A stretch of DNA of 64,000 bases from a phage. Below the pieces are notes generated by a model, which was given only the letters and a program-made list of their open reading frames with translations, was not told the origin of the DNA and did no database searches. Position numbers and translations under genes: made by a program. Of this stretch, positions 48,590 to 48,966 are shown piece by piece; within the stretch, counting starts at the first letter, position 1; the number at the start of each line of letters is the position of its first letter. The stretch is from the sequence record PZ476263.1; one strand, given 5' to 3'.

Positions 48590-48966
48590 TGATGTGCACT
48601 ATATCTATGTAAAAATCTCATGTCAATACTTTTAATTAATAAATTTTAAGATAAAATATAAAAGATCTCTAAAGATCTGTTGACTTGATCTATAGATCTA
48701 TGTTAAATATGTTAAATGTTTATAAAGATCTTGTTTTTTTTTAATGTTTTTATTATTTATTGTTTTAATAATAATTATGAATGAAATGAATAATTATTAT
48801 ATAATTTATGAATGAAATGAATAAATTATAATGTAAAGGGGTTTGGTGAGCGGCGGCGAGCCAGGGAATTCTAATATAGTATTGTATGCCTAAACGGGCA
48901 TAAAGGGTTTGACTTGTTAAGAAGCTCGTGTATGATGGGTAACGAAGACCAGAAGGAGGTGAAGTT
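48590..48966. promoter_or_regulatory. Divergent AT-rich control region with AGATCT/GATC iterons and direct repeats
   Basis: Several copies of (a)aagatct within about 90 bp from 48663 (aaagatctct, aaagatctgt, gatctatagatcta, aaagatct), tgttaaat x2, atgaatgaaatgaataa x2; genes diverge on either side. Confidence 0.5.
48909..48936 (+). promoter_or_regulatory. sigma70-like promoter candidate
   Basis: TTGACT (48909-14), 16-bp spacer, TATGAT (48931-36); strong SD aggaggtg precedes the ATG at 48967. Confidence 0.4.

Follow-up and report, generated by a model that had tools for sequence, protein, structure and literature searches.

A possible origin-like module in the divergent early control region of a Septuagintavirus-like phage

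The window analyzed here is a stretch of 64,000 nucleotides of phage DNA (record PZ476263.1), in which a leftward and a rightward gene array diverge from an intergenic region at 48563-48966. Judged from the alignments with its relatives, this region is a conserved early control hub between two outward-facing predicted promoters, a leftward one (P_L) and a rightward one (P_R), which bears out the preliminary description of a divergent control region. The promoters point away from a spacer of about 280 bp that holds a GATC array, a T-rich tract, two 19-bp direct repeats, a GC-rich island and a dyad (Table 1). Our leading reading, held tentatively, is that the region is an origin-like module of the type that combines an initiator with an unwinding element, with a methylation-sensitive input.

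By sequence, the window phage belongs to the Vequintavirinae and is Septuagintavirus-like (rV5-like). Across 48231-49343 the window is about 82% identical to six E. coli phages (UPEC06, LTH01, A5-4, A7_1, A73 and W70), four of which (A5-4, A7_1, A73 and W70) have been described as the new genus Septuagintavirus (PMC11370258), and its gene order is syntenic with that of A5-4 at 68-91% identity. Given that the relatives start the first leftward gene at the ATG at 48562, the intergenic region is taken as 48563-48966 and not as 48590-48966; its GC content is 26.8%. A search for further relatives in IMG/VR and in a metagenome contig collection gave five more loci only.

The origin-like reading is supported by an AT-rich core that is unique in both the window and A5-4, by the recurrence across the genera examined of a dyad, an AT-rich GATC-bearing tract and a small helix-turn-helix (HTH) gene, by the first rank of GATC in 15 of 18 homologous regions, and by the block of the 19-bp repeats and the 37-nucleotide block, both far more conserved than their flanks. 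It is also supported by the rV5 protein, which lies near the DUF6945 and HTH_36 cut-offs and is labeled a replication initiation protein in RefSeq, and by the weak viral fold matches of the window's own protein, which include a DUF6945 protein, lambda O-like proteins and annotated replication initiators. The reading is ranked first mainly because of the rV5 arrangement.

In rV5, gp075 is a 116-residue HTH protein with sub-threshold matches to DUF6945 (27.2 against a cut-off of 28 bits) and HTH_36 (24.5 against 25). Directly downstream of it (2540-2740 of locus L046) lie four 22-nucleotide repeats spaced 22, 21 and 21 bp, each of which holds the dyad TGTCCG-N5-CGGACA, and these are followed by an AT-rich tract with two GATC sites. 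No sigma-70 match was found beside this dyad array. The rV5 dyad resembles the dyad TGTCCCC...GGGGACA of Av-05, whose protein belongs to the window's family, and the two proteins show weak pairwise homology (E = 1e-4).

The lambda origin consists of four dyad-symmetric iterons, bound by O, beside an AT-rich tract. By analogy, the rV5 layout, in which four dyad repeats of similar spacing adjoin an AT-rich tract and an HTH gene, resembles this origin rather than the placement of an operator. In the window, too, a dyad of this kind stands next to the AT-rich core, yet the window differs from lambda in having one dyad only, in carrying the element outside rather than inside the gene, and in encoding a protein without sequence similarity to O and no evident P-type helicase loader.

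Two observations concern the rV5-type records themselves. In some Vequintavirus records, repeat_region features are annotated at the corresponding intergenic position, and 18 records named Campylobacter phage match the rV5 locus (those listed at 93.8-97.6% identity), which suggests mislabeled hosts or contaminated preparations.

Promoters, conserved blocks and the winged-helix protein

Near-consensus sigma-70 hexamers at 16-18 bp spacing are found on both strands and are conserved in relatives. The sigma-70-like promoter that the preliminary description gave for the first rightward gene is present as P_R, and P_L (48626-48598) is an additional predicted promoter that it did not mention. P_L is identical to UPEC06 at 25 of 29 positions, with both hexamers identical in UPEC06 and A5-4; the P_R -35 hexamer is likewise kept in these two phages. 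TATAAT boxes are also present at 48800 and 48827. Literature searches returned no paper mapping transcription starts in the Vequintavirinae.

The tightly conserved, iteron-like elements of the region appear to be the 19-bp repeats and the 37-nucleotide dyad block, not the AGATCT sites. The direct repeat given earlier as two copies of atgaatgaaatgaataa is real and consists of exact 19-mers at 48775-48793 and 48806-48824, which are unique in the window where 0.08 would be expected by chance. The block around them (48763-48836) is identical to UPEC06 at 72 of 74 positions, compared with 12/22 to 28/34 (55-82%) for the flanking segments, and related copies of the repeat occur in Certrevirus, SSBI34 and ABPH49-type phages. 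The dyad TATGCC-N6-GGCATA occurs once in the window. Dyads of the family TRTNCC-N5-6-GGNAYA were found in every related genus examined, shortly before the -35 of the first rightward gene. The window has one such dyad and Av-05 two; KB57, Ro1, PVP-SE1 and Hena1 have two and, close to the ribosome-binding site, a third.

Two other interpretations of these blocks were rejected. For a structured RNA, the right-hand half gave a fold z-score of -0.16 and no compensatory pairs, and Rfam matched downstream transfer RNAs (tRNAs) only; as no RNA structure signal was seen, a protein site is the best reading of the dyad. An attB-like partner for the 37-nucleotide block was found neither in one genome per bacterial species, nor in E. 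coli genomes, nor in IMG/VR.

From position and symmetry, the 37-nucleotide block is likely the binding site of the 128-residue protein encoded by the first rightward gene. The family of this protein occupies the same first rightward position at the same junction in phiTE, CR8, CR9, KB57, Ro1, PVP-SE1, Hena1, Av-05, TH18, SSBI34, ABPH49 and ChuuTotoro. Its AlphaFold model (predicted local distance difference test, pLDDT, 69.6) has winged-helix topology, and its structural neighbors are all winged-helix proteins, all with weak scores.

In the strain of SRR17836600 (L019 1-30), the 128-residue protein is identical to that of the window, yet the P_R spacer and -10 differ (ATCTGTTGGAGCTCTGCAGTCATCGATGGG); the rightward promoter therefore varies while the protein does not.

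Table 1. Features of the intergenic region and its two flanking genes (window positions).
Feature	Coordinates	Strand	Details
AT-rich core, candidate DNA-unwinding element	48631-48830		13.5% GC
GATC array	48661-48733		AGATCT at 48663, 48673, 48694 and 48726; further GATC at 48687
Tandem TATGTTAAAT x2	48699-48719		tgttaaat pair, 9-bp period (repeat family search)
Two exact 19-bp direct repeats TTATGAATGAAATGAATAA	48775-48824	+	starts 31 bp apart
GC-rich island	48837-48869		two G(T/C)GAGC motifs 9 bp apart
37-nucleotide conserved block with dyad TATGCC-N6-GGCATA	48870-48906		dyad at 48885-48902; 37/37 identical to UPEC06
Predicted leftward early promoter P_L	48598-48626	-	TTGACA-17-TATAGT, 11/12 consensus (promoter scan)
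Predicted rightward early promoter P_R	48909-48936	+	TTGACT-16-TATGAT, 10/12 consensus (promoter scan)
First gene, leftward arm	48281-48562	-	93 residues, phrog_12865 (PHROG match); from the open reading frame list, 93-residue form annotated in relatives
First gene, rightward arm	48967-49353	+	128-residue winged-helix protein, phrog_8453

The AT-rich core and the GATC array

The extreme AT-richness noted in the preliminary description is confirmed. The core is the lowest-GC 200 bp of the window, the next-lowest having 24.5% GC, and the duplex at 48688-48837 is the least stable of the window, at 5.6 standard deviations below the mean. A scan of 145,052 of the 145,365 bp of A5-4 likewise gave the homologous 200 bp as the extreme of that genome (17% GC against 28.5% for the next) and as its least stable stretch; nothing else in the scan comes near the intergenic region in AT-richness, and nothing matches it in GATC density. 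At only 120 bp, the second divergent junction of A5-4 features in neither list (AT-rich or GATC-dense), so divergent promoters alone do not explain the spacer. In composition, the core is the kind of AT-rich tract that adjoins iteron-type origins, its unwinding being putative.

Three Avunavirus scaffolds in GenBank (18-1-2, 24-2-1 and 19-1-2) all end within the homologous AT-rich region, and the complete TH18 record is without 83 bp found in the AT-rich stretch of Av-05 (594 vs 677 bp). This stretch may hence be missing or collapsed in published Avunavirus genomes.

The several (a)aagatct copies that had been reported from 48663 onwards are present, and their clustering is not random. Four AGATCT sites and a fifth GATC span 69 bp (48663-48731), with GATC spacings of 10, 13, 8 and 32 and five sites within 67 bp. 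The window contains 28 AGATCT sites, and four within 63 bp have a probability of 4.5e-5 under random placement. GATC as such is neither avoided nor favored over the whole window (343 sites, observed/expected 1.01), and five in 63 bp are unremarkable at the window-wide density (p = 0.11); at the local GC content of 14.7%, none of 100,000 composition-matched shuffles gave five. The array thus has two or more GATC sites within about 31 bp, in excess of chance.

The comparison was extended to 18 homologous intergenic regions from several genera, which are related and hence not independent. Among the 24 permutations of A, C, G and T, GATC heads the count in 15 of these regions, either by itself or jointly with another word. 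Over all regions it totals 79 occurrences; the next word, TGAC, which is part of the promoters, reaches 34. The enrichment is therefore shared by relatives of several genera; absence of the sites from related genomes had been named as a refutation of the earlier proposal. The label of iterons given to the AGATCT sites is not justified, however, since these are palindromes of 6 bp that vary rapidly in number and spacing: the array is identical to UPEC06 at 39 of 53 positions, with 20 of its 73 bases opposite gaps. Copy number ranges from 2 to 6 per region and peaks in the lineages of Certrevirus and the Septuagintavirus-like phages, positions and spacings shift between relatives, and single sites are lost between close ones, as in the change from AGATCT to AGGTCT between L027 and L028 and between Ro1 and KB57. 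From these alignments, the array is a redundant, fast-changing cluster that strongly constrained elements adjoin.

Such turnover is also what would be expected if the array had no function of its own, having arisen as replication slipped in an AT-rich spacer and having persisted by chance. The variable copy number, the loss of single sites, the frequent gaps opposite UPEC06 and the neighboring tgttaaat duplication, which looks like slippage, all fit this explanation. The duplication, reported earlier as a direct repeat, is real, and is probably recent slippage given that it sits in a 20-base stretch opposite a gap in UPEC06 (30 bases in A5-4). For the array as a whole the explanation is quite unlikely, because GATC is the top word in so many loci of several genera at differing positions, where one slipped unit would not persist. 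The extra array sequence relative to UPEC06 and A5-4 also creates a weak rightward promoter-like site at 48680-48708 (TTGACT, a 17-bp spacer with two GATC sites, TTAAAT).

Alternatively, the (A)AAGATCT(T) units could be sites for a sequence-specific phage or host protein, or phased A-tracts that bend the DNA, methylation being irrelevant in either case. The enriched word in the window is indeed a longer palindrome (AGATCT or AAGATCTT) and not just GATC, and the AGATCT spacings of 10, 21 and 32 bp are roughly whole helical turns. In the relatives, however, this phasing is absent (10, 8, 8, 17 and 12 in UPEC06; 13, 13 and 31 in PVP-SE1), and many of their sites read GATCC, GATCA or TGATC, which leaves the GATC core as the common part. 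A site of 6-8 bp is also short for a specific regulator, and GATC recurs in Certrevirus promoter spacers within other sequence context. This alternative is considered unlikely.

The Certrevirus-type P_L (phiTE, CR8, CR9 and three metagenomic relatives) carries GATC within its 17-bp spacer, at positions 5 and 13; in L033 it is found at position 13 only. In L041 the GATC positions are kept whereas other spacer bases differ from CR8, which argues for selection on the Dam sites themselves. Hence, the earlier proposal of a Dam-sensitive switch gains some comparative support. The relatives infect Enterobacterales, hosts that possess Dam. The outcome of ClaI digestion of CB7 DNA has been described as compatible with Dam methylation (PMC7344957). 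In the window, no GATC falls within the hexamers or spacers of P_L or P_R, and the sites lie 37-105 bp upstream of the P_L -35.

A second copy of the dyad block

A5-4 contains an inverted second copy of the 37-nucleotide block at 70289-70325 (L050 20289-20325), identical at 36 of 37 positions. It lies nine bases past the stop codon of A54_52; on the 145-kb map, about 70 kb separate the two copies. Certrevirus has two copies in 14 of 14 records; the second copy in CR8 (L051 30371-30444) extends over 75 nucleotides at 89% identity, includes the GC island as well as the dyad, has three GATC sites in or just beside it, and follows gp118, a context equivalent to that of A54_52 in A5-4. The two copies are roughly opposite each other on the circular map.

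The second copy bears on whether the locus could be a packaging or genome-end site (pac/cos), like the Dam-regulated pac of P1, which is flanked by GATC clusters. Logan contigs, which are k=31 assemblies, from several independent runs end at exactly 48899 or start at exactly 48876 (L016, L018, L021-L023 and L029-L032), as DNA ends would cause them to, and contigs of a Certrevirus-like lineage break at the matching place. These breaks are an assembly effect and not DNA ends: they arise because an exact repeat of at least 30 nucleotides spanning 48870-48905 recurs elsewhere in the genome, and the ends expected from it (48870+29 and 48905-29) are exactly those observed. The second copy of the block thus fully explains why short-k-mer assemblies of these phages break here. 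Furthermore, contigs of other lineages assemble straight across the locus, the terminase genes are far away, and the Certrevirus phages CB7 and phiTE are reported to be circularly permuted, for CB7 by BAL-31 digestion and read depth (PMC7344957). Physical genome ends at the locus were accordingly rejected on account of the second copy and the read-through contigs, and a packaging site of any kind is very improbable.

Origin-like module or control of transcription

Under the origin-like reading, the winged-helix protein would bind the dyad as a dimer and would also regulate its own promoter. Divergent transcription would drive negative supercoiling into the AT-rich core, which would melt and allow the phage replication proteins to load. 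Incoming DNA would carry full methylation at the GATC sites, and newly replicated DNA hemimethylation. This difference could render the core (in Certrevirus also the leftward promoter) sensitive to Dam and SeqA, and parental genomes would then behave differently from replicated ones.

Several results weigh against this reading. Literature searches found no mapped replication start or origin in the Vequintavirinae. An iteron array would have at least three direct repeats of about 17-22 bp; the window offers two repeats of 19 bp and a single dyad, whereas rV5 reaches that number with its four 22-nucleotide repeats. DnaA boxes and IHF sites have no exact match in the region, only one-mismatch matches in AT-rich DNA (for Fis, no convincing match was found there either). 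The 128-residue protein consists of one winged-helix domain with no obvious helicase-recruiting part, searches of Pfam, NCBIfam, PDB sequences, Foldseek PDB and BFVD gave only sub-threshold or generic matches by which to name it, and the alignment of its family with rV5 gp075 by hhalign reached a weak 2.6% probability. The second site of the dyad block is not AT-rich and, unlike the intergenic copy, has no -35 beside the dyad, so an AT-rich partner is missing there. The dyad abuts a -35, and KB57, Hena1 and PVP-SE1 have a third copy close to the ribosome-binding site; this is exactly the pattern expected of a plain autoregulator. Finally, the corresponding HTH gene of the rV5-type phage Bas54 is not essential.

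The last point comes from the supplementary tables of a transposon study of Bas54 (MaxBurger; HIDEN-SEQ preprint). In its HTH gene 17 of 20 transposon sites were struck, with mean reads of 13.6, and in the small open reading frame over the dyad array, placed by coordinate mapping from rV5, 4 of 7 sites were struck, with mean reads of 18. The neighboring genes have mean reads of about 140-190, so insertions in the module are about ten times rarer. These values suggest that Bas54 can do without the rV5-type module, though with a loss of fitness. Insertions that are rarer yet tolerated would fit a non-essential origin in a phage that also starts replication by recombination. The same study describes an intergenic region without insertions, which was first considered as support and then dropped: by the supplementary-table coordinates it is a convergent junction elsewhere, between bas54_0134 (+) and bas54_0135 (-). 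This insertion-free junction, of about 2 kb, is at 92785-95298 of Bas54 (MZ501093.1), a different locus.

Control of transcription alone is nearly as likely as the origin-like reading, given that it explains the remaining data about equally well. The dyad would then be the operator of an autoregulated early winged-helix regulator with no role in replication, the AT-rich spacer would provide UP elements and bent DNA for two strong promoters, and the GATC array would be a Dam/SeqA-sensitive upstream element through which the output of the early promoters changes upon hemimethylation. This agrees with a dyad 3-11 bp from the P_R -35 in most genera, with the third dyad that KB57, Hena1 and PVP-SE1 have between their -10 and ribosome-binding site, with the spacer GATC sites that the Certrevirus-type P_L keeps despite other changes, and with a Bas54 HTH gene that is dispensable at a cost to fitness. 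The SeqA-activated GATC sites of lambda lie upstream of pR, and the distance of the window's array from P_L is comparable.

Other findings are less easily accommodated by transcription alone. The four dyads and AT-rich tract of rV5 adjoin no sigma-70 match, and the second 37-nucleotide copy follows a stop codon, where the sole nearby promoter match is about 115 bp off, on the + strand. The other divergent junction of A5-4 manages with its 120 bp and neither an AT-rich nor a GATC feature, and in the window no GATC overlaps a promoter. The two readings can both hold, as the initiators of iteron replicons also act as repressors of their own promoters. The earlier proposal of an origin thus gains some support from comparison, through the genome-unique AT-rich core, the four-dyad array of rV5 and the adjacent winged-helix gene.

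Comparison with known systems places the candidate module among several types. In P1 oriR, pSC101 and F, a GATC-bearing AT-rich stretch is followed by a GC-rich spacer, initiator repeats and a winged-helix gene with a self-overlapped promoter, and the window has the same element order. It differs in the lack of DnaA boxes, in having two direct repeats and one dyad only, and in the protein, Rep of iteron replicons having about 290 residues and two winged-helix domains against 128 residues and one. The context also differs, as the window is from a 140-kb lytic phage. E. coli oriC combines unwinding 13-mers with sequestration by SeqA. GATC sites are likewise clustered in the window's most easily melted DNA, at a spacing that suits cooperative SeqA binding, and one-mismatch matches to the oriC 13-mer GATCTnTTnTTTT occur at 48655-48667 (minus strand) and 48727-48739. 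The latter likeness is weak, with six one-mismatch matches in the whole window; sequestration would moreover slow a lytic phage, so the logic would need to differ.

Among Dam-sensitive promoters, pIN of IS10 and the SeqA-stimulated pR of lambda are comparable in that GATC lies upstream of a strong predicted promoter in the window and inside the spacer in Certrevirus, but in the window it touches no -35, -10 or spacer. Lytic phages offer a further parallel: the T7 primary origin and T4 oriF and oriG pair a promoter with an AT-rich unwinding element, and SPP1 has two origin regions (oriL and oriR) served by one initiator. The window resembles them in its strong predicted promoters beside an AT-rich tract, and A5-4 and CR8 do so in having two distant copies of a predicted protein-binding element. 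Unlike T7 and T4, its AT-rich tract is upstream of both promoters and not downstream, and unlike SPP1, the second copy has no AT-rich tract.

A more ambitious version, in which the region is the primary origin of a large lytic phage, with firing and early promoters gated by Dam methylation of the array and with the second copy cooperating, is improbable. If true, the phage would tell its incoming, fully methylated genome from replicated copies, and the inverted copy about 65-70 kb away, nearly opposite in two genera, could be for example a second origin, a terminus-like site, or a partner for inversion or pairing. Should the Dam sites prove important, the phage would depend for its growth on the Dam and SeqA status of the host.

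The search for an origin or early circuit in the Vequintavirinae, large phages of broad host range whose use in therapy and biocontrol is widely proposed, is narrowed to about 400 bp with named parts: two promoters, the GATC array, two repeats, the dyad block and a probable binding protein. The same module is seen in rV5-type phages, where the transposon data hint at a role in fitness.

The skew in GC content was dropped as evidence on the origin. The authors of the rV5 genome report that it flips with transcription direction (PMC3606486), and in the window it likewise switches together with that direction; hence it is not independent and is uninformative on the origin.

As for the surrounding genes, homologues of the 93-residue leftward gene were found in Septuagintavirus-like, Certrevirus and SSBI34 phages only. 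The window also encodes, at 19923-20429 (-), a 169-residue N6-adenine DNA methyltransferase with an NPPY motif (phrog_799), 82% identical to A54_151 of A5-4; as to its target, Pfam gave no match and PHROG says only "DNA methyltransferase". Six tRNA genes are clustered at 50967-52821 (+), about 2 kb past the rightward promoter.

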